A stretch of DNA of 64,000 nt from positions 26,081 through 90,080 of IMG/VR virus record IMGVR_UViG_3300002925_000022; one strand, 5' to 3'. Of the stretch, positions 9,250 to 28,972 are shown piece by piece; within the stretch, counting starts at the first letter, position 1, and each line of letters starts with the position of its first letter. The notes beneath the pieces are model-generated. The model was not told where the DNA came from. It did not search any database and saw only the letters and a list, made by a program, of their open reading frames with translations. Made by a program: the position numbers and the translations under genes. Origin of the DNA: a virus.

Positions 9250-9581
9250 TAGACTTCTTCCCTGGCAACCTCATGAACTTCAATGTACTTTTGCTTAGAC
9301 CGTTGGGTGAACTTCACCACCATCTTCGCTACAGCCACCTTGGCTGCCTTGACCCCCTCCAAAGCGTTAATGGTTGCCTGTTGAACTTGGGGTGAATCAA
9401 AGAACATTGGAAGAACCAAACAGTCCTCAATTGCCTTCTCTGCTTCCTGAAGCACCTCTGTTGTCTCAGAGAAATCATTCTCTAAAATCAAAATAATGCT
9501 GGCAAACCTCCAAAGGTAAAACCATGAAACTAGGAGCAAGCCAAACAGAAGCAAGCACAGGAGGATCAGAAAGACAACCAT
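9249..9581 (-). CDS. Hypothetical membrane protein
   Basis: 110 aa with a hydrophobic N-terminal helix; start/stop overlaps with neighbours. Confidence 0.55.
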   Translation of the reverse strand: MVVFLILLCLLLFGLLLVSWFYLWRFASIILILENDFSETTEVLQEAEKAIEDCLVLPMFFDSPQVQQATINALEGVKAAKVAVAKMVVKFTQRSKQKYIEVHEVAREEV

Positions 9582-10762
9582 TAACTAGCCTCCAAATGCG
9601 TCAATAGCAGATTGTCATATCGAGCACTAATCGTCTCAAAGTCGTAGAGGATCAGAAGCTTCTTTCGAAGTTCCATAGCCCACTCCTTCGGAATTGAGGG
9701 ACTCTCCGCAAACTTCAGCAATCTTCTCTTGGCATCTTCTTCTGTTGGGTAAGCCCATTGAGCCCCTGGCACAAAGATTTGCCCATCCACTCTGGATTCA
9801 TGAACGGGACCAAGGCGGTGTTCAACCTTCAAGAATCGACCGTGCTTCATAAAATCCATATGCCCCGACCAACCCGTAGCAATTACAGGGAGGCCAGAAG
9901 CAGCAGCTTCCAAGATCGGCAGACCATAGCCTTCGCCATGTGTCAGAGCCACAAGCGCCTTGATCTTAGGGTGGCTATACAGTCCCACCACCTCAGAGTT
10001 GGTCATCGACCCATGCAGAAGGTAGAACTTTGGCCCTGGCCCCTTTTGTACTTGCATAAGAATCTGCATAAGGGCGTTTTGAGTTGCCAATCGGTCGATC
10101 TTGGTGTTCCTCATCATGTTGGTCTTGATTACCACACCAATATCTGGTCGATTGGCGAATACCTCAGCCAACCACTTCAGAGTGTATGGCAGGTTCTTCC
10201 GATCGTTCTCTTGATTGTTTCCGGTAATTTGACCAAAAACTAAAAAGTTGAAATCGGTTGGAATATGACTCAGGTCAATAGAATGCTGTTCCGGGTTCTT
10301 CACCTCGTCAATGAAGCTCTCTGGCACCACCACAATTTCTGTGGTCACTGGACCGGAATTCAGGAAACTCTGCTTGGTGAACTCCGATGGAACAAGCACC
10401 AAGTTCATGTTGTTCACTGCCTCAATCCACTTCGGATTACATCTATCTGCCTCAACCCCTGCTGTCATCCCAATGTTGAAGGCACCCAACATAGGATTCC
10501 ATTCGTTCGGAAGCTGAAGCTGGATGGTCACATCATAAAACGGTTTGGTATTCTCCGTTGCCTGGAGAATCCTTCCAACCAAGCCGTCCTCTGCTTCTAC
10601 ATCCGTCAGCCAGCCCGTGTAACCCCAGTTGAGAGCTTCCACTGCAATGTCCAGGTCTAGTTCTTCTTCCTTGGAAAAGAGCCACTTAGCCACTTGACGA
10701 GCATGAACACCATACCCGGAACATGTCAAAACAGGAGCCCGCAAAAGAACAGTTTTTCCCAT
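9581..10762 (-). CDS. Glycosyltransferase, GT-B fold (GT4-like)
   Basis: SGYGVHARQ N-terminal motif and GEGYGLPILEAAASGLPVIATGWSGH (ExxGxxxxEA). Confidence 0.9.
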   Translation of the reverse strand: MGKTVLLRAPVLTCSGYGVHARQVAKWLFSKEEELDLDIAVEALNWGYTGWLTDVEAEDGLVGRILQATENTKPFYDVTIQLQLPNEWNPMLGAFNIGMTAGVEADRCNPKWIEAVNNMNLVLVPSEFTKQSFLNSGPVTTEIVVVPESFIDEVKNPEQHSIDLSHIPTDFNFLVFGQITGNNQENDRKNLPYTLKWLAEVFANRPDIGVVIKTNMMRNTKIDRLATQNALMQILMQVQKGPGPKFYLLHGSMTNSEVVGLYSHPKIKALVALTHGEGYGLPILEAAASGLPVIATGWSGHMDFMKHGRFLKVEHRLGPVHESRVDGQIFVPGAQWAYPTEEDAKRRLLKFAESPSIPKEWAMELRKKLLILYDFETISARYDNLLLTHLEAS

Positions 10763-10766
10763 GGTA

Positions 10767-12191
10767 TCACTTCCCTTTACCCTTCACGCCCAGCTTTGCC
10801 AGGATTGTCGGATGGATCTTCTTGAACGGATGATTAGCTAGATTTACAGGTGGTTTCGGCTTCACCACTTGTGTTCCTACTCTTTGTGGCATAATCTGAA
10901 CATTAAGCGGTGTGATGCTCCACTGTTTCCTAGACCCCTTCTCGGATTCCCACTTTTCAATAACCTCTGAAAGTGTCCTGGACCAGTCTTCGATCATCTT
11001 GTCATAGCTGAATTCGTAATTCACATATTCAACAGCCTTAGTCTTCAGGGCTGTTTTCTCCTCGACAGTCATCTTATAGATTTTCATCAGGCCGTTAGCT
11101 ACGTCCTCTTTAGAGGCAAAGTCCTCATAGATGTATGGAACCATCTGGGAACCCACAAGCGCACGGATTGCCGGTTCAATAGCAGACCCAAGTTCTGTTC
11201 CGTCTCTATGGTCAATAACCTGACGAGTCAAACCACCTGTCTTCAAAGCAACTATTGGCTTCCCGCACTGTAAGGAAATGAGAGTCGACAGGCCGAATCC
11301 CTCATTTTTTGAAATGTTGATGCAGCAATCCGTCACATTGTGAAGGACATTCATGTGGTCAAAATTCAACTTCTGGACTGAAAACAGAACGTTATTCTGA
11401 AGCCCAAGAAGTTCTTGAACAGCAAGAAGGTTAGGGCCTTCTGGATCACCTGGATCCGTGTGCATCACAAGACATGCCTTCCGGTGCCCCTCTTCTTTTT
11501 CCAACTTATCTAAGAAAAGCTTCCAAGATTCCATCACATCGGACGGAAGCTTTCGAGTTGCATTTCGATTCACCCAAAGAGCTATGAACCAATCCGCCCT
11601 GGGACCAAAATTCTCTTTTCGAAGACGAACAACCTCATTCTCCGGCCCAGGGAAATAAATATGCTTTGGGAAAGCGTGCGGAATATAGTTGGTCTTCTCA
11701 GGGAAATGCGGTTTCACCATCTCGTAGGTTTTATACGAGAGACAGTTGATAAGATCGGTGGACTCATACCACACTTTGTTGAACACGGGGTAAGGATCAT
11801 TATCCCAGACATGCCAATAAGCAATCGGACAAAGCTGGTGAATCTCGTCCTCCACTTCCCAAAGCCAAATGAATTGACGAGGGTCTGTGAAAATGATGAT
11901 CGCATCTGGACGCTCGGTCATCAAAATGTTTCTCACTTGTTCCCGAGTCCCAAACCCATCCACTGGCTTGATAATGAAGTCAGGGTTCACTTGAATCAAC
12001 GAATAGTCAGGATGCTTGATCGCCCCACCAAGACAAAGGAACTTAAACTTGCCCGTTGCAATCAGTCCCTCAATGAGCAACCTTGCCTGCGTTCCTACTC
12101 CAGAAGGAGCAAGTGGATGATCGGACAAAAAAAGAATCTTCTTCTTCTCAAAAGAAGCCGTTACCGGTTCAGCTTGTTTGATCAGTGGCAT
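10767..12191 (-). CDS. Glycosyltransferase, GT-B fold (GT4-like)
   Basis: SDHPLAPSGVGTQ and NEGFGLSTLISLQCGKPIVALKTGGL motifs. Confidence 0.9.
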   Translation of the reverse strand: MPLIKQAEPVTASFEKKKILFLSDHPLAPSGVGTQARLLIEGLIATGKFKFLCLGGAIKHPDYSLIQVNPDFIIKPVDGFGTREQVRNILMTERPDAIIIFTDPRQFIWLWEVEDEIHQLCPIAYWHVWDNDPYPVFNKVWYESTDLINCLSYKTYEMVKPHFPEKTNYIPHAFPKHIYFPGPENEVVRLRKENFGPRADWFIALWVNRNATRKLPSDVMESWKLFLDKLEKEEGHRKACLVMHTDPGDPEGPNLLAVQELLGLQNNVLFSVQKLNFDHMNVLHNVTDCCINISKNEGFGLSTLISLQCGKPIVALKTGGLTRQVIDHRDGTELGSAIEPAIRALVGSQMVPYIYEDFASKEDVANGLMKIYKMTVEEKTALKTKAVEYVNYEFSYDKMIEDWSRTLSEVIEKWESEKGSRKQWSITPLNVQIMPQRVGTQVVKPKPPVNLANHPFKKIHPTILAKLGVKGKGK

Positions 12192-12225
12192 TTCTTACCT
12201 TTTCCACGTCATTGTCGAAAACAGA

Positions 12226-13035
12226 CTATAGGTTGTATCTAACCCTAATGGATTCGGGTAGGTTCTTAGTGTCATACCGAAGAGCCAATGGAATAGTCCA
12301 CTCATACCCCAATGAGATCTCTAAATTCTGATTGTTCTTCTCAAAATCCCAGTTCAACCACTTCTCCTCGTACCAACCCTCATTTGGCGGACTATCCCCA
12401 ATAATCCTGGAAAATGCCAAAGCAGTTAGGTGCTTCCAATACATGTTCTGAGGGGATAAACAGAAACCAAGGTTGTGAACCCTAGCAGGAAGCCTGTGAA
12501 TGTTCTCAGAAGCCCCGTTAAAGCCCGTCTCACCCATCGGTGATCCAAAGATACGATGGAACACCACAGACGTTCTATTGGGCCTCTCAGGCACATAGTA
12601 CTCTGGTGTCTTCCACAGTTCCACCTGTCTGGTGGTTGCCTGGACCCCAGCATAGAGATTCCAAGAGGCAAAAGCCTTCTCAACTTCCACGGCACTGAAC
12701 ACATGATCAGGTTCAATGAAGACCGCAGTATAGGGCTTGCACCTCTTCAAAATGAGATCGTTGATGATATGAGTTAGCTGATTCTTGGGAGTGGGCCAGT
12801 AGTCGTCGATGATTTCAACCTTAGGTTCATTCATTCCCAGAACCTTCTGCCGGGTTTTATCAAACTCTTCTGGCCAAGAGACCCATTCACCCTTGTAGGT
12901 TACCCCTTTGGTGTTTCCCCAAGGCTTCTCAGCTTTGACCACGTAAACACGATCCACATAGGGGAGAATGGAACGTATAGACTCCTGGATGAAATCTTCA
13001 CCGTAAAGGACACGGTAGACAGCTACGGTGTTCAT
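12226..13035 (-). CDS. Glycosyltransferase-like protein (GT-A/GT2-like)
   Basis: GEDFIQESIRSILPYVDRVYVV and FIEPDHV (DxD-like). Start at 13035 inferred from an ATGA overlap with the upstream stop. Confidence 0.65.
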   Translation of the reverse strand: MNTVAVYRVLYGEDFIQESIRSILPYVDRVYVVKAEKPWGNTKGVTYKGEWVSWPEEFDKTRQKVLGMNEPKVEIIDDYWPTPKNQLTHIINDLILKRCKPYTAVFIEPDHVFSAVEVEKAFASWNLYAGVQATTRQVELWKTPEYYVPERPNRTSVVFHRIFGSPMGETGFNGASENIHRLPARVHNLGFCLSPQNMYWKHLTALAFSRIIGDSPPNEGWYEEKWLNWDFEKNNQNLEISLGYEWTIPLALRYDTKNLPESIRVRYNL

Positions 13036-13949
13036 GTTACTGTTGGAATGAAGTTGCACGTTCTTGTTCCGCTGTTGAGGATATTGGAAATTAGGTTGAA
13101 GTTCAGGTTAGCGAGATTATTCCCAAGTGTCTTGTTCCTTGAGTGATCCAATCTCTGAAAGGGTTCAAACACGACCATGGGAACAATCCCTATTCTGGAG
13201 TAGTTCATTAGGTGTTCAGTGTCCTCACCCCAAAACTTCTGGAATCTCTCGTCATACCCATTTTGAATCATGACATGCCTGTTCCCAAAATAGAGGCCAT
13301 TACCAAGATGAGGGTGATTTTTCAGATTCAAAACACCATTGTTGGGAAGTTGCTGGAATTTCTCAATGATATTAGTGAACTGCGAGTAGGTCAGCCTCAC
13401 ATCCACATCCAACAAAAACATATGATCGTAACTTGCATTCTGGAGACACTGGTTCCGGGCATAAGCCATGTGGAACTTCTCCATTGGTTCTTTCTTTACT
13501 CGTATACCTGCTGGCAATTCTGCATCACCAAATAAAACCACACTGATTTCCATGTTATCCAGCAGCCATTCCCTGTAATGGTTGATAGATTCACGGAAAA
13601 GAGAAAGATATGGTTCGTCCGCCGTGCAGATGAACCCAAAGGTAACTCCGGGAATGTACTTAGTTACCGGCTTTTGTGGGAAAAGCAGATGGATATGAGA
13701 ATCCTTCTCTTTCAAAAGAAAGAGATGGAACGAACCATCATCATAAGTGATTGCTTCAATGAGTTTCCCACTTGAAATATCGATTTCCCGTGGAGTGCGG
13801 TAGTCCCAAACCCCTATCATCGAATGAATGGGCATCAAAGAGAAATGCTTCTCGAAGTCTACGACATTCGTGAAGAAATAATGGGGTCCAGCGCAGTAGG
13901 GTGTTGTGCCATTGAACTTGTGAATGGCACTCTCAAGGGTGTGATTCAT
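13032..13949 (-). CDS. Glycosyltransferase (GT-A, GT7 C-terminal-like)
   Basis: AYARNQC...FLLDVD (DxD) ...GYDERFQKFWGEDTE. Confidence 0.75.
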   Translation of the reverse strand: MNHTLESAIHKFNGTTPYCAGPHYFFTNVVDFEKHFSLMPIHSMIGVWDYRTPREIDISSGKLIEAITYDDGSFHLFLLKEKDSHIHLLFPQKPVTKYIPGVTFGFICTADEPYLSLFRESINHYREWLLDNMEISVVLFGDAELPAGIRVKKEPMEKFHMAYARNQCLQNASYDHMFLLDVDVRLTYSQFTNIIEKFQQLPNNGVLNLKNHPHLGNGLYFGNRHVMIQNGYDERFQKFWGEDTEHLMNYSRIGIVPMVVFEPFQRLDHSRNKTLGNNLANLNFNLISNILNSGTRTCNFIPTVT

Positions 13950-14187: not shown

Positions 14188-14763
14188 TCACCCCTCTGAG
14201 GGGGGCAATAGCGGAAGCTGGCGCTGGTGCAGCGGTACTCGGCCAACATGTTCCCGCACAATACGATCAACTGCTGGATCGAACGGCAATGCAGCAGGGC
14301 CAATCTCCCACCGGACCTTGCGACCAGGCTGTTGGGCGGGCTTCCGCCGTCGGCTTGGCCGATCGAACTCTCCCCCACGAGATATGGCTGTAGGATGCCA
14401 GCCGCACGCTCGATAGATCGTGCCAGCCTCGCCGAGCAGAGTATACGACACCAACCGTGTCCACCCAAGGGCGAAAGCAGTTCTGGTCAACGCAGCGAGA
14501 GCTTTGGAGGCCGCATGCGGCGTTGACCCGTCGCTGGCAACTCGTGTCACCTCTGCTACATATGCACTTGGAGTAGCGTTTCCTATCAATCTAGCCGTTG
14601 GCCGCCCAAGGATGGCAACGCAGACCAGAGTTCCGGCAGCCTCGACACCGACAGCGAAAAGACCAAACTGCGGTCGATCGAGGTGCGAGTGCTTTGCATG
14701 TACGAATTCCATAGCCTCCTTCAGCGTGACAGGGCGGACTCTTAACAATGGTTCTTTCATCAC
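14188..14763 (-). CDS. XF1762-family / Mom-like GNAT-fold protein (putative DNA modification)
   Basis: AMEFVHAKHSH...VAILGRPTAR...AEVTRVASDG...ALGWTRLVSYTL...GTIYRACGW. Visibly more GC-rich than its flanks. Confidence 0.7.
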   Translation of the reverse strand: MMKEPLLRVRPVTLKEAMEFVHAKHSHLDRPQFGLFAVGVEAAGTLVCVAILGRPTARLIGNATPSAYVAEVTRVASDGSTPHAASKALAALTRTAFALGWTRLVSYTLLGEAGTIYRACGWHPTAISRGGEFDRPSRRRKPAQQPGRKVRWEIGPAALPFDPAVDRIVREHVGRVPLHQRQLPLLPPSEG

Positions 14764-17198
14764 GTTGACCGCTTACCCATGGCTGCCGCCGACTCGGCCT
14801 CTTGAGTCTCCACAGGGGCATCAAAAGGTTTAAAAAAGTGACCCTGCTTGGGTGCGCGACCGATTCCAAAGACAACCACCCCTGGCTGTTCCGGTATCAT
14901 TCTCCAAGGATCAATCACCACAGAACCCGGAGGGAACTTGTAATCTCGAAATACAGCATGACGTGTTCCAATAAAGAAACACTTGGCTGGTCCGTCAGCA
15001 TACGGATTCACTGTTTTGTCAACAGCATTGTCTACCCAGGGATCATACATTTCAGCTTCAATTCCTCTCTCAGCTAGGATGTTCTTCAGCAGGATTGCCG
15101 ATGAACCAACCTCAAGATTGGTCTGTTCCTTGAATGCTTTGCCAAGAATGACAACCGGAAGGGTCTTGTGCCCTTTCAGCGTGTAATCCTCAACAGAATA
15201 GATCGGCACGTTTCGGTGCTTCTCCACCAGATTTGCAAGGAAGTCCGTCTGTTTCTCCCGAGCCATCATAATGGCCTCGTGGAAGTCAAAGGTCATACCG
15301 AGCTTCCTGGAGAGCCAGGAGAGAGCGATATTGTCCCTTGGGTGACAGTTGTGATTGACGCCTGCCTCGGAAACATAGGTATGGGTGCCTTCCACATTCA
15401 TGTTCCAGACTGTTCCCTCATACTCAACCACTTCCATCTTTTCAATGGCGTGATATGAGAGATTGCCGATGAATGGCAATGTGTCGTACCGCCTTGCCTG
15501 CATTTGGTGCTTGATTGGCATTTCAACCAAAGCAGCCAACTGTTCAATGTATTTCGCGTTTCTTACGCTAACTTCCCAGCTTTCACGGTAAAACACATCA
15601 TCAGAACCAGTCCTGGCTGGGTGATATTGAAGTGTATTCAGAATGTCAAACCTTCGAAGCAGAAGAGACACGCCATAAGCGAGATGTCTGGAGATGGTAG
15701 AGAAATTGAATCCTTCAGTATTGGCGGATCCATGTCCTCTCCACAATCCCCTCAAAATGGCCTTGGCATCAGCATCAGAACCAAACATCACCCACTTCGG
15801 AAGCGACTTGTCAACACAGCCTTTTCCAAAGTCTCCCAAAAGACGACGGGCCAAACTGGCGCTGTTATACCGAAGAGTCTCTCCTTGAGACCCTTCTTTA
15901 AGGATCCTGGTGGTGTATGCTTCTGGATCAAGAACCTTGATACACCTGTCAATCTCTGACAGGTAATCCTGTTCATTTGCGTGAAGTTGGAATTCCACAC
16001 GCTTTGGGTTGTCCGGGCTTGCCCCCCAGAGTGTGCCTCCAGAGAGATAATAGCCAGCAATGGTCATGTAGGCCAAATGCTGTTCATCACATTGATAAAA
16101 CACCGTTCCAATGGGCCGTGGGAATACCAAGAAATGAATACCAGAACGAAGGTCTTGAGCCTGCATCCTTATTGGGGGTTGACCCTCTTCTGCTGCCTCA
16201 AAAGGATGCTCTGGAGTCACGTAGGTTTCCGGTAGCCCACGAGCCTTTATCTTAATGATTGGACCCTTGTAAGGGCGCTTGTAGGTCTCCAAAACAGTTC
16301 TCAAGGTGCCATCACCAGAAAGAACCTTCATTCCAGGTTCAATATCTTGAATCTGAACCGGACCATTTTCACCATAAACGATGCCATTCGGAAGCAAGCA
16401 ACCTCCACCATCACCCATACCTGCGGTCAGGTACTTCGGGGAAATCAGTCTCTCCTTAGCCAGTTTCAAGGCATTGGTCACTTCATCAACATCTGCCCCG
16501 GTGTGGTGACAGACTTCCATCAGATTATTCACAAAGGCAATCTTCGTAGAGATAAAGGTGTTATAGGCCACCTTGATCAATTCAGCACTCTTGATGGAAC
16601 ACCGATAGAAGGGCGCATTGTGAATCGTCTTGTAGAAGGCTTCAGCAATGTCTGCTGCCTTCTCATCGCTCATGCCAAACAGAACAAACTCGGGATGTTC
16701 AAAATCATACCGGGTCGTTCCCATAGCAATGAAGAACGGGTTGTAACAGAGCTTGAAGTGAGGTCCAAGAAGAGGAATCACCTTTGAATCCATCGTGCCT
16801 GGAAGGACCGTGGAAATAACCACGACTGGCTTGTCTTTGCCAGTCTTCTCAATGGCATCGTTGAGTTGTTTGCAAGCTTCAATCAGGTAGCTGTAGTCAA
16901 AATCTACACGTTCTTCTGGAATCCGTGTTATCCCCTCGTAACGAGGGTCATGCGGTGTCTGAACAGCCACAAAGATGAGATCCGCAAAATCTACCAACTC
17001 CTGGACAGGTACCACACGAATCTTGGTATTAACCAGGAGTTCTGGCGTTCCTTCCTCACGGTAAGGGATTTTCTTATCTCGGATATACCCGGCGACTGCT
17101 GGATTGGGGTCATACCCAACCACTTCATGACCTGCCGCCTCTGAAGCTAGAGCACATGGCAAACCAAGTTTCCCCAAGCCTACAAAACCTATACGCAT
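14760..17198 (-). CDS. ugd: UDP-glucose/GDP-mannose 6-dehydrogenase, intein-containing
   Basis: Rossmann GLGKLG, AVQTP, STVLPGT, SAELIKVAYNTFISTKI, GGG/CHPRD, LGKAFK and YDP motifs. Confidence 0.92.
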   Translation of the reverse strand: MRIGFVGLGKLGLPCALASEAAGHEVVGYDPNPAVAGYIRDKKIPYREEGTPELLVNTKIRVVPVQELVDFADLIFVAVQTPHDPRYEGITRIPEERVDFDYSYLIEACKQLNDAIEKTGKDKPVVVISTVLPGTMDSKVIPLLGPHFKLCYNPFFIAMGTTRYDFEHPEFVLFGMSDEKAADIAEAFYKTIHNAPFYRCSIKSAELIKVAYNTFISTKIAFVNNLMEVCHHTGADVDEVTNALKLAKERLISPKYLTAGMGDGGGCLLPNGIVYGENGPVQIQDIEPGMKVLSGDGTLRTVLETYKRPYKGPIIKIKARGLPETYVTPEHPFEAAEEGQPPIRMQAQDLRSGIHFLVFPRPIGTVFYQCDEQHLAYMTIAGYYLSGGTLWGASPDNPKRVEFQLHANEQDYLSEIDRCIKVLDPEAYTTRILKEGSQGETLRYNSASLARRLLGDFGKGCVDKSLPKWVMFGSDADAKAILRGLWRGHGSANTEGFNFSTISRHLAYGVSLLLRRFDILNTLQYHPARTGSDDVFYRESWEVSVRNAKYIEQLAALVEMPIKHQMQARRYDTLPFIGNLSYHAIEKMEVVEYEGTVWNMNVEGTHTYVSEAGVNHNCHPRDNIALSWLSRKLGMTFDFHEAIMMAREKQTDFLANLVEKHRNVPIYSVEDYTLKGHKTLPVVILGKAFKEQTNLEVGSSAILLKNILAERGIEAEMYDPWVDNAVDKTVNPYADGPAKCFFIGTRHAVFRDYKFPPGSVVIDPWRMIPEQPGVVVFGIGRAPKQGHFFKPFDAPVETQEAESAAAMGKRST
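15348..16400 (-). mobile_element. Intein (351 aa) with LAGLIDADG-type endonuclease domain, in ugd
   Basis: Begins C-LLPNG, has block B TPEHPF and block F VWNMNVEGTHTY, ends VNHN followed by +1 Cys. Removal restores GGG-CHPRD. Confidence 0.93.
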
Positions 17199-17588: not shown

Positions 17589-18218
17589 CTAGAGGATTAA
17601 CAGACATGTTACTCCAGGGGTGTCGTACACGGTAAAAAGATTGAGCCGAAGGAACGTTTTGTACCCGAATCCCCGGAAGAACTCAATCCACTGTTCCTTG
17701 GTCTTGCAGTTGATATGGGTGGGATCCTGACGAGATATTTCCAGTGCAAAGGTCTTTCCGCCATCCACAGAGGAAGGAATTCTGACCACCATGCACTTGG
17801 GATTTAGGGTGGTAATCACCTCTGAAATCTGTCCATCCGTCATGTGTTCAAACACATCCAAGGCTGTCATGACGTGGGCGGTAAATGGAACAAAGTTATA
17901 GGGGGACCAGTAATAGATGTTGTTCCCCCGTTCTCGCCCATTTTGTATAGCCCATTCGGAAACCTCGTACCCAATTGTGTTCTTGAACCCAAGTTCCTGA
18001 AAGCCTTCCAGGAGGAAACCGACAGCACACCCGTAGTCAATAATGTTGCTTTCCTTTTGTACAAGGTTTAGTTTCCGAAGAAGATCGGCCACTTCGTAAG
18101 CTGTCTTCTTGTACCGGTCGGTTCTTTCCAGGTAGTCAGCGTAGTTCGATGACTGGTAATACTTGGCTGTGTAAGCCGAAGGATCAACAGGGACATCTGG
18201 AGACTTTGGCAGTTCCAT
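17589..18218 (-). CDS. Class I SAM-dependent methyltransferase
   Basis: IIDYGCAVGFLL (motif I), GYEVSEWA, ALDVFEHM. ATG at 18218 with a GGAG RBS. Confidence 0.85.
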   Translation of the reverse strand: MELPKSPDVPVDPSAYTAKYYQSSNYADYLERTDRYKKTAYEVADLLRKLNLVQKESNIIDYGCAVGFLLEGFQELGFKNTIGYEVSEWAIQNGRERGNNIYYWSPYNFVPFTAHVMTALDVFEHMTDGQISEVITTLNPKCMVVRIPSSVDGGKTFALEISRQDPTHINCKTKEQWIEFFRGFGYKTFLRLNLFTVYDTPGVTCLLIL

Positions 18219-19930: not shown

Positions 19931-20306
19931 GTTGCCTCACCTGTTGTTCTTCGTCGAAAACTGTTGGACCGCCCATCAAAAGGCCAAAATGGCTTTCATA
20001 GCCGGTATTAGAGAAAACCTCATCTCCTGAAGCCTTGCTTTCAAGTTCACGGAAAACCGCATCAGGTGTACCCAAAGAGGGATTGATGAAGACCTGAACG
20101 TTAAGACCTTTCCGAATGTACTTCCGAAGACTATAGAACTCCACGGCGGTCTTGTGATCATCATTATCAACCCAAAGAAGAATCTCAACCTTGTCAAAGT
20201 TTTGACCGGTCCTTGCCCTCCAAGCTTCGTAGTCAACCACACTGTCGAGAAACTTGAACAGTGTGGCAGGATCTCTAGGGAAATACAAGCAAACGCTGGT
20301 TGACAT
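19923..20306 (-). CDS. Short degenerate paralog of the neighbouring GT2 N-terminus
   Basis: VEILLWVDNDD...SKASGDEVF aligns by eye with LEIVFYMDKDD...KVATGDIF in the 20309-21031 protein. Confidence 0.5.
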   Translation of the reverse strand: MSTSVCLYFPRDPATLFKFLDSVVDYEAWRARTGQNFDKVEILLWVDNDDHKTAVEFYSLRKYIRKGLNVQVFINPSLGTPDAVFRELESKASGDEVFSNTGYESHFGLLMGGPTVFDEEQQVRQHG

Positions 20307-22243: not shown

Positions 22244-22441
22244 TTATACCCATTCAGGGTCATAATCTTCAGCCTTTGGGGTCAAGTTCAGCCCAGCCTT
22301 GCGTATCTGTTTCAGTAAAGGGAACATCTTGTAATAATCTAGTACTTCTTTGGAATGCGCAGAAATCCAGCTAGATAGAGGTGTTGTTGAAGCAACAACC
22401 GTCTTGTTCACACTGGGATTCTCTGGGGACTGTTCAGCCAT
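22244..22441 (-). CDS. Small hypothetical protein
   Basis: ATG at 22441 overlaps the end of the upstream GT (MAEQSPENP...). Confidence 0.4.
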   Translation of the reverse strand: MAEQSPENPSVNKTVVASTTPLSSWISAHSKEVLDYYKMFPLLKQIRKAGLNLTPKAEDYDPEWV

Positions 22442-23459
22442 GGTTCTTAACCCATTCTTGAATGACAGCCGGATGAGGACGATGAATAGTAACGTGAGGG
22501 GTAACAGTTTTCCCATCCCACCTAGAATGAAAAATATGCCCTCCGGTCTTGGTTTCCAATTCCTCAGCTTTCTGGCGAATCATCTCTTCGGTTACTTCAG
22601 ACCACGGAACCTCAAAGAAGGGATTCCAGTTTGGATCTTTGTTTTGGACACTATCTGGTCCATACATTGCTTTCCAAAAGGTTGTCCAGAAAGAACGGTA
22701 CTGATAGATCTTCCTTTCAATGGAAAACCAAGAATAATGATGAACCCCTGGGAACTCGTTCACAAACTGGTTGAACCACTTCTCATAGGCTGTTACTAGC
22801 TTCGGATTCTTCATAGCCATCTGCCGGAGTCCTTCAATCTCCGAAGGCATAAACCCCATGACAGGAAGAATCTGCCCCGTGCTCTTAGAAATATAATCGC
22901 ATCCATCCGTCCCAGGGGACGCATAGTCCAAACCGTTGAACTTCCTCCTAAGCTGAACCGGAATCCCATGAGTAATATCGGGTAGATTACGAGAAAGACG
23001 AGCCTTCCAAGGATTGATGTCAACTCGCACTTTCCCTTTACTTCCCCAATACTCCATAACTGGCAAAGCAACAATCGAACAATGCCGGAGATAGTTCAGC
23101 TTCTCAATCAACGACCGAACCTTTGGCGCATCCAGTTCGTGAACAATCTCGTCCGTGTCGAACTGCCAGAGAAATTCACCTTTGCAATTCGCTCGCGCAA
23201 GCGCCTTGGCCCGTCCATCAAAAATCCCGTGATTAGGAGCCTTCCAGTCGATCTGATCGGTGTGGATGACCCGTACCCTTGGCTCCTCCCTAGAAATGGA
23301 TTGTAGAGACTCTAGGGTGCCTTCCTGAGGGTCTCCAGAATCAAGGACAACCACTTCATCGGCAAACTGAAGCATGCTCTTGATGGACTCCTGGAAGGGA
23401 TAGTCCATGGTCAAAGCATTTCGAGTAGTGGTGTAAGCTGAAATCGTGAAGGTTGTCAT
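22434..23459 (-). CDS. Glycosyltransferase family 2-like
   Basis: YPFQESIKSMLQFADEVVVLDSG, LWQFDTDEIV (DxD), IHHYSW-like HHYSWF. Confidence 0.85.
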   Translation of the reverse strand: MTTFTISAYTTTRNALTMDYPFQESIKSMLQFADEVVVLDSGDPQEGTLESLQSISREEPRVRVIHTDQIDWKAPNHGIFDGRAKALARANCKGEFLWQFDTDEIVHELDAPKVRSLIEKLNYLRHCSIVALPVMEYWGSKGKVRVDINPWKARLSRNLPDITHGIPVQLRRKFNGLDYASPGTDGCDYISKSTGQILPVMGFMPSEIEGLRQMAMKNPKLVTAYEKWFNQFVNEFPGVHHYSWFSIERKIYQYRSFWTTFWKAMYGPDSVQNKDPNWNPFFEVPWSEVTEEMIRQKAEELETKTGGHIFHSRWDGKTVTPHVTIHRPHPAVIQEWVKNHG

Positions 23460-23865: not shown

Positions 23866-24771
23866 TTATGGACAGAGAGGAGTCGCTCTGAAGTCACAGA
23901 AACGACAGGCTGTTCGATTCTTCAGCCAGTAACGCTTGGCAATGAGGTTCAGCGACAAAGAAATAAGGTCAAGAGCATCTTGCCTCGTCTTGTCTCCAGC
24001 AGAAACCGGGACAAGTTCACAACATTCCTTCTTGGCTGTGCGCTTGAGAAGGACAAAGCCGCAATGGATGGTTTCCATTGCTATGCCTGTCTTAACACTG
24101 AAAAAGTGTTTATAGAGAGCTAGCTGCATCCGCTTGTACTTGTCCTGCTTCCTCTTTTTGTCCCACCCCCAAGAAGTCGTCTTCCAATCAAGAATCCAGT
24201 AGGTGTATTCCGTTGCTATTTCCTTTTTTCCCTTTCGAACTTTAATTGGAACCTTGATCACACAATCAATGAATCCCTTGAACCACTTGTTGGTTTTACC
24301 TTCAATTGGTTCAAACAGTGGAAACTCAGCAGCCACAATTTTCCACCCCGGAAAGGTTGCATCCATCCACACTGGAACCCTTCGGAGAATGCGGTCAATG
24401 GGTTCCAGCCACTCTTCCTGCAATTCTCCGGGGTCTGGTTTGAAATTTGGAAGATTATTGAAGCCTTTCAAAACCTCATTGCAACAGACTTCAATCCGCT
24501 CATCCCAGTCAAAATCCTGGAAGTTCTGGCTAAGAAGCCAATCCTGGAGTGCTGAGTGAATCCCATGACCGTAGATGGTGTGTTCGCTGTCTTGTTCAGT
24601 ATGACCGTCCACATACTTTAGCTTGTGCTTGTACCCGCATTCATTGCATGTGCTAATTTCAGAAAAGGAAATATGATGCTTCCCTGTCGGAAGTATCGTT
24701 GGATCTTTGAAGAGAGGAAGATGAACGACCATCCCATTATAATGGGCCGCTTTATCGTTTCCGTATTCCAA
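23866..24771 (-). CDS. PD-(D/E)XK nuclease (RecB/Cas4-like exonuclease)
   Basis: SFSEISTCNEC, GHGIH, AEFPL, KGFIDCV, ILDWKT, QLALY, CRFCDF...CP (Fe-S cysteines). Confidence 0.9.
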   Translation of the reverse strand: MEYGNDKAAHYNGMVVHLPLFKDPTILPTGKHHISFSEISTCNECGYKHKLKYVDGHTEQDSEHTIYGHGIHSALQDWLLSQNFQDFDWDERIEVCCNEVLKGFNNLPNFKPDPGELQEEWLEPIDRILRRVPVWMDATFPGWKIVAAEFPLFEPIEGKTNKWFKGFIDCVIKVPIKVRKGKKEIATEYTYWILDWKTTSWGWDKKRKQDKYKRMQLALYKHFFSVKTGIAMETIHCGFVLLKRTAKKECCELVPVSAGDKTRQDALDLISLSLNLIAKRYWLKNRTACRFCDFRATPLCP

Positions 24772-25750
24772 ATTTCGCTCTTACCTGAAACTCCGAAAGT
24801 GTTCGGGCATTCGAATAAGAAAAAGCACTTCGGAGCCCCCCAGCAATATCATCCACAATACGCTTCACCGGTCCCTTGTGTTCAACAAGAATCGATGTCC
24901 CCTCTGGTGTTGGAGTACAACTATCATCTACTCTGATAAGATGCATGGCGTCCTCGGACGCCATGCCACGGTAGACCTTCTTACCATCAACCACCCAGTC
25001 CCCTGGGGCCTCATCGGTACCAGCAAAAAGACTGCCTGCCATCACAAGATCGGCACCGGCTGCAATGGCCTTGGCAACATCCCCGTACTCCCTAATGCCT
25101 CCATCAGCAACTAAAAGCACCTTCCTAGAAAGCGACTCAAGCCCCACTGCACAGTCCTCAATAGCTCCAAGCTGGGGAACAGTAACACCCGTAACATTCT
25201 TCGTTAAGCATACAGCACGCGGGCCTATCCCCACCTTCACTGCATCTGCACCCCAGGAAGCCAAAGCAATAGCACCAGAACGGGTAGCCACATTACCAGC
25301 CATGAGAAAGATATCGGTGAAGGTTCCCTTCATCCACTCCATCATATCTCTCATCATTTTTGAGTGCCCATGGGCAATATCAATAATAAAATAACGTGCT
25401 CCAGCCTCGTAAAGAGCTTGAGCACGCTCTTTGCTATCTCGATTTACTCCCACAGAGACAAAACAGTCCAATTGCTGGTTAGGAGTTCTCCTTACGAGCC
25501 TGTATTTTTCAACATTTTCCTTAATTGACCAAAAACGATGAAGTGCTCCAAGAGCACCAGCTTCTCGCATAGAACGAGCCATGCAAACATTGGTCACCGT
25601 GTCCATGTTGGCCGAAATCACTGGAACCGATACATCAAGGTGGCCCACCTTTATTGAGATATCCACCTCCGATCGGGTATTCACCTCGGAGTATTGAGGA
25701 ATCAGGTACACATCCTTATACTCAAGTCCTTCAAACTGCTGTTGTTTCAT
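24752..25750 (-). CDS. IMP dehydrogenase / GMP reductase family (no CBS domains)
   Basis: ISANMDTV, IDIAHGHS, AGNVAT, VKVGIGP.AVC, ADGGIREYGDVAKAIAAGAD, YRGMAS, EG. Confidence 0.9.
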   Translation of the reverse strand: MKQQQFEGLEYKDVYLIPQYSEVNTRSEVDISIKVGHLDVSVPVISANMDTVTNVCMARSMREAGALGALHRFWSIKENVEKYRLVRRTPNQQLDCFVSVGVNRDSKERAQALYEAGARYFIIDIAHGHSKMMRDMMEWMKGTFTDIFLMAGNVATRSGAIALASWGADAVKVGIGPRAVCLTKNVTGVTVPQLGAIEDCAVGLESLSRKVLLVADGGIREYGDVAKAIAAGADLVMAGSLFAGTDEAPGDWVVDGKKVYRGMASEDAMHLIRVDDSCTPTPEGTSILVEHKGPVKRIVDDIAGGLRSAFSYSNARTLSEFQVRAKFGIRKR

Positions 25751-26135: not shown

Positions 26136-28972
26136 CAAAGCCCCGCAAACTGCGACCAGAAAACATCCCCCCTAGTTCGAAGGTAGTTCTCACACCCTTC
26201 TGGTGTTCCCTTAAACCAATCATCGTGCTTCTGTAGCACGTTCTCATTGCACATCACTTCCAAGCCCATCAGCTTGGCTTCCAAAGTCACCCTGGGACAT
26301 GTGTCTCGATCCAAAGGCATAAAAATCAGTCCTTTGTACTCAGAGAGTTTCCGAAGGAACTCCTTGTACGGAAGATTCGGAATAGGTTCAAACTGATACC
26401 TCTTCAAGGTACACCACTTCTGTGTCTCTTCCACCCCCTTGATCCAGGAACCAGACCCAAGGGTGGCCCAAAGCGGCTTCCGTTCCGTGCCCCCCTTCCG
26501 GTATGACGCCAAAATATCCAGGGTCTCATCATCAAAAACAGAAGAAAGAACCATGTGCCCTGGGTGAGTAACAAGTTCTGGAACATGCTTAAGCCAGTGA
26601 TCCTTCTGGCCAGAAGACATCCAGAAGATCTTATCGGCCTTCTGGAAAACCCGAGCAACAAACAGTCCGTGTGTCTCCTTCGCACAATTGCAAGGCTGCC
26701 CTGTAGCCTGCTGATGCCGATTGGTAGACCGGTAAGCACAAAACTTAAAATCGTACTCCACAATCGAATACCGAATTCCAGCATCAGGAAGATACCGTAT
26801 CATAGCATCCGACATGGATGCAAAATTGCCGAAAATCCAGTACTTGTCCTTGTTGGCATCCAGAAGTTTCTTGTTCGCCGAGTTTGAGTGAAGCCGGAAC
26901 ACCTTGTAAGGACTCTTCTTGATGATGGCTTCCGAAGTCAATTCGGCGCCTCCAGCAACTTCACGAACAAAATAATCGTTAACAAAAACTACTTTCGTGG
27001 ACTTGGGAATGCTGTACTCAACAGCCATCCCTGTAAAAAAACTACGACCTAAAGTTCCGTTCATGTCTTCTTCTTCTTCTTCTTGTCTTTTGTCTTCTTG
27101 AGGGTTTGAAGCCTCCTCCACATCATGGAGAAGAATAACGTTCATGTCTTTCGTGCCCGGTTCTCCGTAAGGCTTCTTGTCTCTCCAGAGGATATCTAGA
27201 AGATTCAACTCTCGGGCATGGTCCAGTCGTGGAAGTGACAAGTGTTCAACATCCTCACCAACATCACTGAATTCACCAGGATTTCCCTGAACGTGTTTCA
27301 CTTCAACCACACTGATCGCTTGGGTACCTTCAAGCTCGTTGAAACCATTCACACGATACCTTCGGCATAGAACTCCAATGATATCCCCTGGTTTTACGGT
27401 GTTGATCCAGGACAAAGTTTTCTCCTTGTCCATGACCAATTCATTCCGTTCCAAAAGGTCCATTTGTTCTTCAGTAATCCGAGAAAGCAACGCCATCATG
27501 GCCTTGTTGTATTCATAGCCAGTCTGGCCCATGTAAAGATGTTCCCGGGAGTGCTGCTTTACTGGTTCCTGGGACTTGATGACTTCAACGCGAACCTTAC
27601 GCCCATTATGGACAATCACATCGCCGTCTTTAAGTCCCTTCTTGCTGTTACCACTGGAACTTGTTGCACTGTTGTTGCTGTCTTCCTTTTGTTCGTTTCC
27701 CGACATGTTCAGCGTTTCCATTGACCTGGAACGGTCCTTCAGCACAACCTTAGAAGGTTCCGTTGAAGTTTGCACGCCATTCTTGACCATCCAGAAATTT
27801 CCCTTCTTCGTGCGTTTCTTCACAAAGCCAAGTGAAAGTAGCTTTTGTGCTAACATCTGGGGCTTGTAGGTCGCAAACCGATCCAAACCCTGCGATTTCA
27901 TGTATTGTTTTCGCTGGATAGCGATTTCCTTAAGAGTCATCGCTGTTCCAATGTCAGTTGTTTCCTCCAGTGTGCTAAAGAACTTATCGTCGAAAGCCTT
28001 AAGAGTTTTAAGATCATGGGGTGCTTCATACCCCTTCTTTGCAAGCCACCCAAGATATAGTTCGTTCACCTTCTCAAAGGTGTTGTCGTAGGACGGATAC
28101 TTGGCAACTGACTGCACAATCGATTCCAACTCGTTCTTGAAAGAACTGGAATCCTCAAAACATCTGAGATACTCCAAAGCCAATTTCCTCAGCTTTTCCT
28201 CGCTTGCTCCATGAGCCCGTTCCGAAGATAGAAGACGGTGCATTGTCATATTCCGTACCCCACAAGGAATCAAAGTCCCACTCGCCATCTTCTCCCGAAT
28301 CATGGTAATAGACATGTTTTGCCATAGCTTCGCATTCTCTGAAACAGAAGACCTAGTTGAAATAACAGTTCTCTCTTCACCCTTTGCCTTCTTCTCCTTC
28401 TTTTTTGCCGTTATCCTCAGCTTTTTCTCCAGAAATTCTGGAACTTCCTGGATGGTTGTCGACTTTAGATCGCAAGTAAACTCGTACCTCTTTCCGTTCT
28501 TGTGCAAACTGGGGGCAATTACCACAAGCCCTCCAGTCCCACGAATGTCCACCTTCTCATCCACCATCTGACAGGAATTCTTTACAGGAAAATTAGACCA
28601 ATAAAAAGCATGGTCCCCTCCACTCCCGCTCCGTTGAGTCACAGTTGTGCTATGCCTCGCAAGCCTCTGAAGAAATGGATGAGCCACAATATCCCCATCA
28701 ACAACCACAAGAAACTTCCCTGTTACTTTACTCCACCTCCCAGTGCATATTGCCAAATTAACCGGCTTCTTCCCCCGCAACCATTTCATTACCTTCGCCG
28801 GTTCCATTGAAGCAACCTTTTGCCAGTTACTCATCAATGGATGTTTCCCTGGACTTGGGCAAGAAGAACCCCTCTTGCAAGTACACTGTCCCCCGTCAAT
28901 TCCATAACACGGAAGCAATGGAATCCCAAGATCACAAAAGAAAGTAACTATTTCCTGCATGGTGATCGCCAT
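26132..28972 (-). CDS. Bifunctional primase-polymerase (Prim-Pol + PriCT) fused to a C-terminal glycosyltransferase-like domain
   Basis: N-terminal CTC...SPGKHP...NLAICTG...VVVDGD...SGSGGDHAF...VDIRGTGGLVVIAPSLH and GVRNMTMHRL (PriCT). C-terminal VFVNDYF...GGAELT...YKGLIFMPLDRDTCPRVTLEAKLMG (GT-B-like). Confidence 0.8.
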   Translation of the reverse strand: MAITMQEIVTFFCDLGIPLLPCYGIDGGQCTCKRGSSCPSPGKHPLMSNWQKVASMEPAKVMKWLRGKKPVNLAICTGRWSKVTGKFLVVVDGDIVAHPFLQRLARHSTTVTQRSGSGGDHAFYWSNFPVKNSCQMVDEKVDIRGTGGLVVIAPSLHKNGKRYEFTCDLKSTTIQEVPEFLEKKLRITAKKKEKKAKGEERTVISTRSSVSENAKLWQNMSITMIREKMASGTLIPCGVRNMTMHRLLSSERAHGASEEKLRKLALEYLRCFEDSSSFKNELESIVQSVAKYPSYDNTFEKVNELYLGWLAKKGYEAPHDLKTLKAFDDKFFSTLEETTDIGTAMTLKEIAIQRKQYMKSQGLDRFATYKPQMLAQKLLSLGFVKKRTKKGNFWMVKNGVQTSTEPSKVVLKDRSRSMETLNMSGNEQKEDSNNSATSSSGNSKKGLKDGDVIVHNGRKVRVEVIKSQEPVKQHSREHLYMGQTGYEYNKAMMALLSRITEEQMDLLERNELVMDKEKTLSWINTVKPGDIIGVLCRRYRVNGFNELEGTQAISVVEVKHVQGNPGEFSDVGEDVEHLSLPRLDHARELNLLDILWRDKKPYGEPGTKDMNVILLHDVEEASNPQEDKRQEEEEEDMNGTLGRSFFTGMAVEYSIPKSTKVVFVNDYFVREVAGGAELTSEAIIKKSPYKVFRLHSNSANKKLLDANKDKYWIFGNFASMSDAMIRYLPDAGIRYSIVEYDFKFCAYRSTNRHQQATGQPCNCAKETHGLFVARVFQKADKIFWMSSGQKDHWLKHVPELVTHPGHMVLSSVFDDETLDILASYRKGGTERKPLWATLGSGSWIKGVEETQKWCTLKRYQFEPIPNLPYKEFLRKLSEYKGLIFMPLDRDTCPRVTLEAKLMGLEVMCNENVLQKHDDWFKGTPEGCENYLRTRGDVFWSQFAGLC

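Follow-up and report, generated by a model that had tools for sequence, protein, structure and literature searches.

A conserved gene island of a huge uncultured phage encodes a glycan-building module whose product may decorate virion proteins

The stretch of DNA that we analyzed (the window; 64,000 nucleotides, positions 26,081 to 90,080 of IMG/VR record IMGVR_UViG_3300002925_000022) carries a sugar-chain gene island at positions 9581-28972, in which all genes lie on the minus strand and are tightly packed, several of them overlapping by 1-28 nt (cf. Table 1). The island holds seven glycosyltransferase (GT) genes and one GT-B-like domain fused to a primase. It also encodes an intein-split Ugd-like 6-dehydrogenase, a radical SAM enzyme, and a class I SAM methyltransferase. 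Genes unrelated to glycans account for about 5-6 kb; they encode the Prim-Pol primase, a PD-(D/E)XK nuclease, and proteins of the GMP-reductase-like and Mom/XF1762-like types. A preliminary description of this DNA had proposed eight to nine GT domains, together with the three tailoring enzymes, all co-oriented. Pfam matches and the common strand bore out the latter part, and eight GT domains of the GT-A and GT-B folds were indeed counted, but the 946-aa ORF at 26132-28972 was rejected as a GT, being a primase with a GT-like tail.

Table 1. Window coordinates of the island genes and domains and of the adjoining 110-aa gene
Feature	Position	Strand	Evidence
110-aa protein, one strongly hydrophobic N-terminal segment	9249..9581	-	hydropathy scan
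GT4 (GT-B) glycosyltransferase, 393 aa, core member	9581..10762	-	PF00534/PF13692 above cut-off; phrog_2170, E 8e-22
GT4 (GT-B) glycosyltransferase, 474 aa, core member	10767..12191	-	PF00534/PF13692 above cut-off
Probable GT-A-fold transferase, 277 aa	12226..13059	-	Atlas feature search, GT-A/GT2/CgtA-like clusters
Weak GT2-like protein, 305 aa, accessory member	13032..13949	-	PF00535, 22.3 bits vs cut-off 23.3
Mom/XF1762-family gene	14188..14763	-	PF25680, 30.3 bits; phrog_1384, E 6e-24; NF045478, 106 bits
Ugd-like nucleotide-sugar 6-dehydrogenase, intein-interrupted	14760..17198	-	PF03721/PF00984/PF03720, Intein_splicing, LAGLIDADG_3
Class I SAM methyltransferase (Methyltransf_23)	17589..18260	-	PF13489, E 9e-8
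Radical SAM enzyme, uncharacterised family	18857..19930	-	PF04055
127-aa protein	19923..20306	-	8-nt overlap with radical SAM gene
GT-A-type glycosyltransferase, 240 aa	20309..21031	-	phrog_14945 'glycosyltransferase', E 3e-42
GT2-family glycosyltransferase, 253 aa	21342..22103	-	PF00535, E 5e-35
GT2-family glycosyltransferase, 341 aa, core member	22434..23459	-	PF00535, E 9e-7
PD-(D/E)XK nuclease, head of GT block	23866..24771	-	PF12705, E 1e-14
GMP reductase/IMPDH-like gene	24752..25750	-	PF00478, E 2.5e-89
GT-B-like domain, about 310 aa	26132..27064	-	Atlas structure matches to viral GT1/GT9/GT2-fusion clusters, TM 0.69-0.88
Prim-Pol primase, replication gene	27065..28972	-	PF09250, E 1.7e-21; PHROG DNA primase

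The two GT4 enzymes, which matched the small-molecule GTs BshA and MshA weakly in a profile comparison, and the 341-aa GT2 have homologues in distant large-phage contigs (393-aa GT4 in L032, E 5e-60; 474-aa GT4 in L032, E 2e-106; 341-aa GT2 in L031, E 3e-123). NCBIfam matches of the 253-aa GT2 were to PgaC/TuaG/EpsE-type enzymes, every one under its equivalog cut-off. The family of the 240-aa protein is annotated as a GT in 71 isolate phages; Pelagibacter phage HTVC008M and 63 Streptomyces phages carry such GTs at 30-33% identity to it. The 277-aa protein had no Pfam match and shares 48% identity with a protein of locus L014 whose gene lies immediately upstream of that for the radical SAM enzyme. 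The 305-aa gene was present among related loci only in L001, L002, and L008. The GT-B-like domain corresponds to residues ~640-946 of the 946-aa ORF and has 200 homologues, many of them fused to PF00535; its AF2 model was of low confidence (pLDDT 45).

As to the tailoring enzymes, the Ugd-like gene is free of the intein in six relatives, and an intein-free orthologue passed the NDP-sugar dehydrogenase model TIGR03026 (210 bits against a cut-off of 190). The radical SAM enzyme, for which 481 homologues were found, has the CxxxCxxC motif and five more invariant cysteines, which suggest an auxiliary cluster. The best PDB match of its AF2 model (pLDDT 88.7) was DesII (Foldseek E 2e-10; VIA Z 20.5 over 312 residues, rmsd 4.3), whereas BlsE ranked sixth (Z 17.2). 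The nearest folds include the antibiotic-pathway enzymes DesII, BlsE, and BtrN; however, since SkfB and SuiB scored almost equal to DesII, the match assigns a fold class only and no reaction. DesII (PDB 8HZV/8HZY) is a radical SAM TDP-4-amino-4,6-dideoxy-D-glucose deaminase and BlsE (PDB 7VOB) a cytosylglucuronate decarboxylase, both acting on sugar nucleotides or nucleosides, and in the case of BlsE on a glucuronic acid moiety. Identity of the island enzyme to either is just 14-16%, and the cluster has no DesI-type aminotransferase partner, unlike the DesII pathway. To our knowledge, DesII has no auxiliary cluster.

The methyltransferase gene is an obligate companion of that for the radical SAM enzyme, and its homologues adjoin the latter in L009, L014, L017, L019, and L021 (44-50% identity). 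This pair recurs at about 50% identity in unrelated phages, in every case in a GT-rich setting. SynMITS9220M01 has the pair within a heptose/GT cluster, and it is also present in a CPR-labelled glycan locus; Ugd lies near it in three of seven lineages. The 127-aa protein gave no match in family searches and is kept in relatives. Since the Ugd-like enzyme passes the NDP-sugar dehydrogenase cut-off and the radical SAM enzyme is closest to the DesII fold, the island may plausibly yield a sugar that is methylated, contains a uronic acid, and is unusual in other ways, much as the preliminary description had put it.

The remaining genes are of a different character. The primase stands outside the glycan chemistry and delimits the island on its upstream side. 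The GT-B-like gene, in-frame with it here, is a separate ORF in L001, L003, L005, and L024 and is translationally coupled to the primase across all relatives; the fusion, absent from the relatives, arose by loss of a stop codon in a GAA repeat. Of the nine related IMG/VR loci, seven keep the nuclease (L001-L003, L005-L008), which also occurs in L024/25, L031, and L032. On the other hand, the GMP reductase/IMPDH-like gene, found among close relatives only in L003 and also in the 471-kb contig L031, is a variable passenger of its slot, and the Mom/XF1762-family gene, found in none of the nine related loci, is an insertion unique to this record and probably lies outside the glycan pathway.

At least ten uncultured relatives, comprising two contigs of 219-224 kb and all but one of the nine related IMG/VR loci, share the gene order of the island at 50-90% identity; the exception is L009, which has the radical SAM/methyltransferase pair only. 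This order runs from the nuclease through GT2, GT2, GT-A, the 127-aa gene, radical SAM, and methyltransferase to Ugd, the 277-aa gene, GT4, GT4, and genes for 110, 253, 149, and 556 aa, followed by the baseplate. The island ORFs are all full length and their GC content equals that of the flanks, and since the island is thus intact and conserved in relatives, a decaying host import, which would be absent from them, was ruled out. More distant large-phage contigs (L031, 471 kb, and L032) keep the core GTs, namely both GT4s, the 341-aa GT2, and the GT-B-like domain, whereas their tailoring genes differ: L031 has an SDR epimerase and a GT11, and L032 a CMP-sugar synthetase, a GT29, and a GXM-like methyltransferase. 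A constant GT core with variable outer tailoring is the pattern expected for an exposed glycan. Together, these data support the assignment of the block as a phage-encoded module of a huge uncultured phage that builds a complex sugar chain.

The flanks agreed in part with the earlier claim that the island lies between baseplate and fibre genes. Toward the baseplate, the stop of the last GT gene (393-aa GT4) overlaps the start of the 110-aa gene, which is the first of a run of four (110, 253, 149, and 556 aa) that leads to a weak gp25-like match (5456-5953) and a gp6-like wedge gene (3600-5444); the 110-aa gene also follows the GT4 pair in L002-L007. On the other side, the island is bounded by the primase and nuclease and not directly by fibre genes. 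Beyond them, four true paralogs (29312-34394; mutual identity 27-39%) are rich in Ser and Thr (15-20%, compared with ~10-13% in the island enzymes) and in Gly (11-13%, compared with 6-8%). Weak tail-fibre PHROG matches were confined to 34568-35692, and 'fibre' is otherwise a putative label for the neighbouring genes.

A hydropathy scan indicated no transmembrane segment in any enzyme of the island, nor any ORF with at least four such segments in the 129-kb record. Bac_transf, WecA-type, and Wzx families were likewise missing from this record and from four relatives. The lack of a flippase and polymerase noted previously was therefore borne out, and it extends to priming transferases and polytopic membrane proteins in the same five records; all records are fragments, 14-48% complete.

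In our opinion, the best reading of the island, albeit a tentative one, is a cytoplasmic pathway that decorates virion proteins. We infer its substrates, step order, and acceptor as follows: the Ugd-like dehydrogenase, active only after intein splicing, would supply a nucleotide-uronic acid; the radical SAM enzyme with its DesII-like fold would act together with the methyltransferase to turn a sugar, or a nucleotide-sugar, into a residue that is unusual and methylated; and about eight soluble GT-A/GT-B transferases would assemble the oligosaccharide directly on an acceptor that is itself soluble, with neither priming on a lipid carrier nor export, most likely on one or more virion proteins encoded by the adjoining late/baseplate genes. 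The particle would then bear a glycan coat, the outer part of which differs among related phages. Chloroviruses and mimiviruses are giant viruses that glycosylate their capsids and fibrils autonomously: in the cytoplasm, virus-encoded nucleotide-sugar synthesis, many GTs, and methyltransferases furnish virion proteins with glycans that are complex and methylated. These are viruses of eukaryotes, and the likeness is one of general description; we know of no radical SAM tailoring in their glycan pathways. Among phages, virion glycosylation in mycobacteriophages is an established precedent, as far as it is described in PMC12619734 (citing Freeman et al. 2023): soluble phage GTs adjoin structural genes, with methyltransferases in some clusters, and virion proteins are glycosylated in the cytoplasm without export machinery. 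According to that description, mycobacteriophages use a few GTs, and their acceptors are known, being C-terminal tails of capsid and tail-tube proteins, whereas the island combines eight GT domains with nucleotide-sugar synthesis and a radical SAM enzyme, and its acceptor is a candidate only.

Several observations count against a virion acceptor. The upstream neighbours, primase and nuclease, are replication genes, and the GT-B-like gene is coupled to the former; replication rather than structural genes surround the radical SAM/methyltransferase pair in other lineages, and the Streptomyces homologues of the 240-aa GT lie among DNA-metabolism genes; and the large proteins encoded nearby showed no tails rich in Ser and Thr. 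Furthermore, soluble GT2/GT4 enzymes can also use host lipid-linked intermediates. A somewhat less likely alternative is that, during infection, the phage GTs and tailoring enzymes use intermediates of the host envelope, undecaprenyl-linked or other, while priming enzyme, flippase, and ligase are supplied by the host. An altered LPS, capsule, or surface glycoprotein would result, which could block superinfection or keep progeny off debris. Homologous GT/Ugd/radical-SAM cassettes, in the hypervariable region adjoining the tail-fibre genes of pelagimyophages and cyanomyophages, have been read in this way, with host O-chain modification proposed for the pelagimyophages (PMC7029224). Like the island, these sets belong to large myophage-type genomes with many GTs, and HTVC008M (gp156-162) even shows the order GT, radical SAM, methyltransferase, Ugd, although in a distant version (32% identity for the 240-aa GT and 24% for the radical SAM enzyme, both low). 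The SynMITS9220M01 setting, the cassette in the CPR-labelled cellular locus, and the similarity of the strongest GT2 to the polysaccharide enzymes PgaC, TuaG, and EpsE point the same way. However, the membrane machinery listed above was found neither in this record nor in those of four relatives, all 14-48% complete, the block is a conserved lineage core set between replication and baseplate genes of an unrelated huge-phage group, unlike a loose accessory island, and there is no tested precedent for an apparently lytic huge phage that invests eight GTs only in the editing of a host polymer.

Glycosylation of phage DNA bases after replication, by some or all of the GTs, would shield the genome from host nucleases, and the nearby PD-(D/E)XK nuclease would leave such DNA uncut. 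Phage clusters with several GT-A/GT-B enzymes of LPS/teichoic-acid-type ancestry, situated near replication or structural genes, do place mono- to trisaccharides on 5hmC, using a C5-MT and 5mYOX/TET (bioRxiv 10.1101/2023.12.21.572611), or, in RB69 and DLP3, poly-arabinosylate 5-hydroxycytosine with a ThyA homologue and arabinosyltransferases (PMC13326640); T4 has its alpha/beta-GT. The coupling to the primase in every relative, the conserved nuclease, the Streptomyces neighbourhoods, and the inserted Mom-family gene would fit such a role. We nevertheless regard it as improbable, because the base-modifying enzymes that are required partners in known clusters were missing: thymidylate-synthase homologues, ThyX, TET/JBP, and C5-cytosine methylases from the cluster and the whole 129-kb record, and, among relatives, ThyA-type enzymes (five records) and TET/JBP and C5-methylases (four of these), with ThyX sought in this record only and all records 14-48% complete. 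In addition, no Pfam match to the T4 alpha-/beta-GT families was obtained, the Mom-like gene is missing in all relatives, the primase fusion is a non-conserved stop-codon loss, and the radical SAM/methyltransferase/277-aa/Ugd set occurs also in an ordinary-looking cellular polysaccharide locus. The cluster is also much larger than the known ones and carries sugar-tailoring enzymes not known from them; eight GTs with uronic-acid, radical SAM, and methyl tailoring go well beyond any known DNA glycan.

Least probable of all, in our view, is a different product, be it an oligosaccharide that is soluble or secreted or a small molecule or lipid that carries sugars (e.g., a methylated storage-type or signalling glycan), or an island that is partly inactive cargo. 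The BshA/MshA matches, the antibiotic-pathway folds near the radical SAM enzyme, and a search for an acceptor that identified none are consistent with it, yet the genes are intact and strongly conserved across many relatives, no exporter was found in the 129-kb record, and phages offer no precedent.

Beside the systems discussed above, the phage resembles the Moraphages (PMC12619734), an uncultured lineage of large phages from aquatic settings that have chaperone genes and whose core genome includes several GTs, falling into four orthogroups. Radical SAM enzymes are not mentioned in that paper (0 occurrences), which lists the same three possible targets for the Moraphage GTs.

The window covers bases 26081-90080 of a linear IMG/VR viral record of 129,319 bp. 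With a completeness of 32% according to CheckV, the record is thus one piece of a far longer phage genome; contigs sharing its gene order measure 189, 219 and 224 kb, and that of a more remote relative 471 kb. All records searched, including those of the relatives, are fragments with a completeness of 14-48%. The structural proteins mostly fall outside PHROG families, and isolate-phage databases contained no close relative (megablast of the whole interval gave 0 matches, and tblastn of the primase against isolate phages only distant N-terminal ones). Genes were identified by Pfam, PHROG and NCBIfam scans and are listed in the table.

Features of the glycosyltransferase (GT) island and its surroundings, in window coordinates; numbered genes are in transcription order
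Feature	Position	Strand	Details
gp6-like baseplate wedge	3600-5444		
gp25-like	5456-5953		weak match
110-aa protein	9249-9581		
1 Prim-Pol primase	26132-28972	minus	~310-aa C-terminal extension
2 GMP reductase/IMPDH-like		minus	
3 PD-(D/E)XK nuclease		minus	
4 117-aa protein		minus	no function given
5 GT2		minus	341 aa
6 GT2		minus	253 aa, E 5e-35
7 GT-A-type		minus	240 aa, PHROG 14945, E 3e-42
8 127-aa protein		minus	no function given
9 Radical SAM enzyme	18857-19930	minus	357 aa
10 112-aa protein		minus	no function given
11 Methyltransf_23 methyltransferase	17589-18260	minus	
12 Nucleotide-sugar dehydrogenase	14760-17198	minus	intein/LAGLIDADG insert
13 Mom/XF1762-family protein	14188-14763	minus	NF045478, 106 bits
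14 Weak GT2		minus	305 aa
15 277-aa protein		minus	no Pfam family
16 GT4		minus	474 aa
17 GT4		minus	393 aa
Small ORF	25770-26135	plus	
Non-coding stretch	28972-29312		
Four paralogs	29312-34394		

The genes between 9581 and 28972 are closely packed, with several start/stop overlaps, and their co-orientation, asserted in the preliminary description, holds throughout except for the small plus-strand ORF. Of the eight to nine GT domains counted there, eight were recovered, a figure that includes the 277-aa protein and the primase extension, for which the evidence is weaker than for the other GTs. About a quarter of the interval serves replication or nucleotide metabolism, which that account had left out. 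The supposed Ser/Thr/Gly-rich fibre paralogs are indeed four true paralogs (27-39% identity) and moderately rich in these residues, but nothing marks them as fibres, and an Atlas search with one of them returned unnamed viral clusters only. The 277-aa protein led, in an Atlas feature search, to GT-A/GT2/CgtA-like viral clusters, and in its alignment the N-terminus is GT-A-like and an E-x-D-H motif is invariant.

The primase extension matched viral GT1/GT9-type and GT2-fusion clusters in an Atlas structure search (TM 0.69-0.88), and its 200 homologues are mostly free-standing viral proteins of ~300 aa, often fused to GT2. An AF2 model of this GT-B-like domain, built from 4 sequences, had a pLDDT of 45, too low for use, and hhalign against the GT4 family gave no signal. 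An in-frame fusion joins the GT-B-like gene to the primase at 27040-27130 (minus strand), the primase stop being lost within a run of GAA codons. Because the GT-B-like gene is separate in four relatives (L001, L003, L005 and L024), where its start abuts or overlaps the primase stop, and the stop is missing here inside a GAA repeat, the fusion is idiosyncratic; a true slip and an error of assembly are both conceivable causes. As a sign of coupling to replication it was rejected as weak, the stop codon being lost in this record only.

A search with the radical SAM protein retrieved nine related viral loci. Protein-by-protein comparison revealed a common order (nuclease, GT2, GT2, GT-A, 127-aa protein, radical SAM enzyme, methyltransferase, Ugd, 277-aa protein, GT4, GT4), after which genes for 110-, 253-, 149- and 556-aa proteins lead to the baseplate. 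Eight of the nine loci keep this order, with identities of 50-90%; the ninth, L009, shares only the radical SAM/methyltransferase pair. The order is repeated in two contigs of 219-224 kb. The GC content of the island equals that of its flanks, save around the Mom-like gene and the intein. Given this even GC and conserved synteny, we rejected a recently acquired host island, and the decaying host locus that the preliminary description had named as fatal to its proposal was not what the synteny check found. GMP reductase occurs in one close relative only. Two distant large-phage contigs are more divergent: in the 471-kb L031 the GT-B-like gene, GMP reductase, the nuclease and the 341-aa GT2 are present, with an SDR epimerase/dehydratase and a GT11 behind them; L032 has PhoH, the nuclease and both GT4s as well as a fusion of GT2 with the GT-B-like domain, and further sugar genes come next. 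As both retain a part and replace the rest, the slot combines four conserved core GTs with a variable portion for sugar supply and tailoring. The genes that follow in L032 (L032:13239-15176) are a CMP-sugar synthetase, a GT29 sialyltransferase-family gene and a plant-type GXM/IRX15-like methyltransferase, which suggests that the glycan of that phage is sialic- or Kdo-like and methylated.

The radical SAM/METHYLTRANSFERASE pair recurs in unrelated phages. There are 481 radical SAM homologues at E<=1e-5, and the best 120 of the 481 are 49-90% identical to the query. In every context examined, the gene is followed by one for a Methyltransf_23 protein of ~200 aa, 44-50% identical to that of the window, and the pair, conserved at ~50% identity across unrelated phages, lies within a GT-rich cluster. 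In a CPR-labelled glycan locus, the pair is accompanied by three dehydrogenase genes, a sugar epimerase, a nucleotidyltransferase and a copy of the 277-aa protein at 48% identity. Its companions are GT25, LicD and a cytidylyltransferase on a PolB phage contig of 168 kb, heptose-type genes and GT9 on a marine contig, and numerous Methyltransf_24, GT17 and GT2 genes on a contig of 143 kb. Distant cassettes are found in Synechococcus phage SynMITS9220M01 (gp209-212, 24% identity, inside a heptose/GT cluster) and in the cultured Pelagibacter phage HTVC008M (gp156-162; by tblastn the radical SAM enzyme is 24% and the GT 32% identical), the latter in the order GT, hypothetical protein, radical SAM enzyme, methyltransferase, carbamoyltransferase, NAD synthetase, UDP-glucose dehydrogenase. 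Three of seven lineages have a dehydrogenase near the pair and two of seven have heptose genes there, which points to a sugar or nucleotide-sugar, not necessarily glucuronate, as its probable substrate.

A confident AlphaFold model of the radical SAM enzyme (38 sequences, pLDDT 88.7) had DesII as its best solved match (Foldseek E 2e-10; VIA-align Z 20.5, rmsd 4.3 over 312 residues), ahead of SkfB (Z 18.4), SuiB (17.5), BlsE (17.2), the viperins (15.5) and MoaA (15). The core and the overall fold agree with DesII at a structural-alignment identity of 15-16%; DesII was absent from the profile-to-PDB sequence matches, and Pfam scans of the island found no aminotransferase, the class to which DesI, the partner of DesII in the desosamine pathway, belongs. 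The CxxxCxxC cysteines (C69/C73/C76) are invariant in the 38 sequences, and five further invariant cysteines suggest an auxiliary cluster. Viperin (ddhNTP synthase) identity was rejected: NF038283 scored 47.5 bits against a cut-off of 180, the PADLOC pVip models cover only residues ~63-168 (the N-terminal radical SAM core), and the viperins ranked below DesII. Single-sequence PDB searches with the radical SAM enzyme, the 240-aa GT and the primase gave nothing useful, and a profile search with the methyltransferase returned generic class I methyltransferases only.

The dehydrogenase retains all three Pfam domains around one intein with a LAGLIDADG domain, and is intein-free in six relatives. 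An intein-free orthologue scored 210 bits with TIGR03026 (cut-off 190); UDP-glucose is only a putative substrate, because the best equivalogs, the Ugd proteins AglM and TuaD, scored below their cut-offs. In L001 (L001:13645-17199) and L008 the gene encodes 1184 aa and may carry more or larger insertions. None of the nine related loci has the Mom-like gene, which is flanked by the dehydrogenase and the 305-aa GT, with a 4-nt overlap, where GC is locally higher.

The product of the island is almost certainly a complex, tailored oligosaccharide, assembled in the cytoplasm. As its acceptor we tentatively favor a virion protein, at somewhat less than an even chance. The run of genes toward the gp25-like and gp6-like baseplate genes begins with one that the last GT overlaps, a junction conserved in six relatives (L002-L007). 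In virion glycosylation of the mycobacteriophage type, which is proven (as cited in PMC12619734), GT genes likewise lie within the structural operon or adjoin it. That first gene encodes the 110-aa protein, which is translationally coupled to the last GT, has ~30 very hydrophobic N-terminal residues and is kept after the GT pair in six relatives. The neighboring proteins displayed neither an acceptor motif nor a Ser/Thr-rich tail; a k-mer search found no promoter motif common to GT and structural genes, its sole find being the recurrent non-coding element ahead of the primase, and a scan for sigma-70 promoters and terminators gave sites no more numerous than in shuffled sequence. It is possible, though rather doubtful, that a huge phage of an uncultured lineage would glycosylate its own virion without host glycan machinery, using eight soluble transferases and a so far uncharacterised DesII-like radical SAM/methyltransferase pair making a modified sugar of a new type, possibly derived from uronic acid; the self-glycosylated virions of giant eukaryotic viruses offer a parallel.

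Alternatively, the enzymes might act on host-envelope intermediates and rely on host machinery, which we regard as possible but on balance unlikely; this is the published guess for the homologous pelagimyophage genes (PMC7029224). Wzx/Wzy- or Gtr-type O-antigen or capsule conversion cassettes have a priming transferase and a flippase, polymerase or other polytopic membrane proteins, none of which was found in these fragment records: PF02397 (Bac_transf) and PF00953 (WecA-type), whose controls were positive, and PF01943 (Wzx) had no match in this record or those of four relatives, no ORF of the 129-kb record has at least four hydrophobic segments, and the island enzymes carry no transmembrane or hydrophobic segments. 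The lack of a flippase and polymerase noted in the preliminary description was confirmed by the PF01943 and hydropathy searches, and without membrane machinery the pathway can, on its own, neither initiate a lipid-linked polymer nor export one. DNA as the acceptor is improbable, even though the GT-B-like gene is kept beside the primase, the nuclease is kept inside the island, and homologues of the 240-aa GT have a DNA-metabolism context in Streptomyces phages. Clusters for DNA glycans have been reported (bioRxiv 10.1101/2023.12.21.572611; PMC13326640). Known DNA-glycosylation clusters contain a ThyA homologue, or a C5-methylase with TET/JBP, as required and normally clustered GT partners, but PF00303 (ThyA), PF12851 (TET/JBP) and PF00145 (C5-cytosine methylase) had no match in the island, the 129-kb record or relatives' records of up to 189 kb, nor had PF02511 (ThyX) in this record. 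The T4 GT families gave no Pfam match at E<0.01; the sole fold model of a GT domain is the one with a pLDDT of 45. The missing hydroxylation partners lower the probability of a DNA acceptor and do not remove it, because all records are incomplete and a distant locus could carry them. Some other acceptor has a slim chance.

GT-rich regions that adjoin tail genes are known from pelagi- and cyanomyophages (PMC7029224), and four core GT orthogroups from the 'moraphage' lineage of large aquatic phages (PMC12619734). The large myophages HTVC008M and SynMITS9220M01 carry a cassette of GT, radical SAM and methyltransferase genes (and Ugd) that is homologous to that of the island. Beyond prior reports are the eight GT domains, the core-plus-variable architecture across huge-phage relatives and the very conserved DesII-like pair, which no paper that we found addresses. 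GT clusters are common in large phages, and their targets are almost never known; this island is a tractable case, since it combines a four-GT core with swappable tailoring genes, no membrane machinery and a conserved pair also present in HTVC008M. The product of the pair and its acceptor would tell whether big phages of Gram-negative or aquatic hosts wear custom glycan coats, or whether such genes serve host remodeling or DNA modification. Such coats, if real, would have consequences for host range, grazing, immune recognition and phage therapy, and if the phage does glycosylate its virion autonomously, the pair, present in hundreds of phage contigs, would mark a widespread, unstudied phage sugar chemistry.

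Several further observations were made. In 63 Streptomyces phages, replication and nucleotide-metabolism genes surround a pair of homologues of the 240-aa GT, followed, as in Moab (58867-60600), by a nucleotidyltransferase; an unstudied DNA or nucleotide modification may be involved. The non-coding stretch upstream of the primase shares the 9-mers AAGGGGGAA and TTAAGAGTT with 3-4 other intergenic sites of the record, including genome ~4.4-5.1 kb and window ~56.4-56.9 kb, and may be a promoter, regulatory or origin-type element at the head of the long minus-strand gene run. Outside the window, at L013:11412-16394 (genome 120812-125794), three consecutive ORFs of 662, 576 and 361 aa match successive parts of a single PHROG DNA polymerase family (phrog_405, 1190 positions); the polymerase gene may be split or broken up by mobile elements. 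Finally, at 44000-50000 the GC content rises to 0.60-0.63 and the GC skew swings from -0.46 to +0.18.
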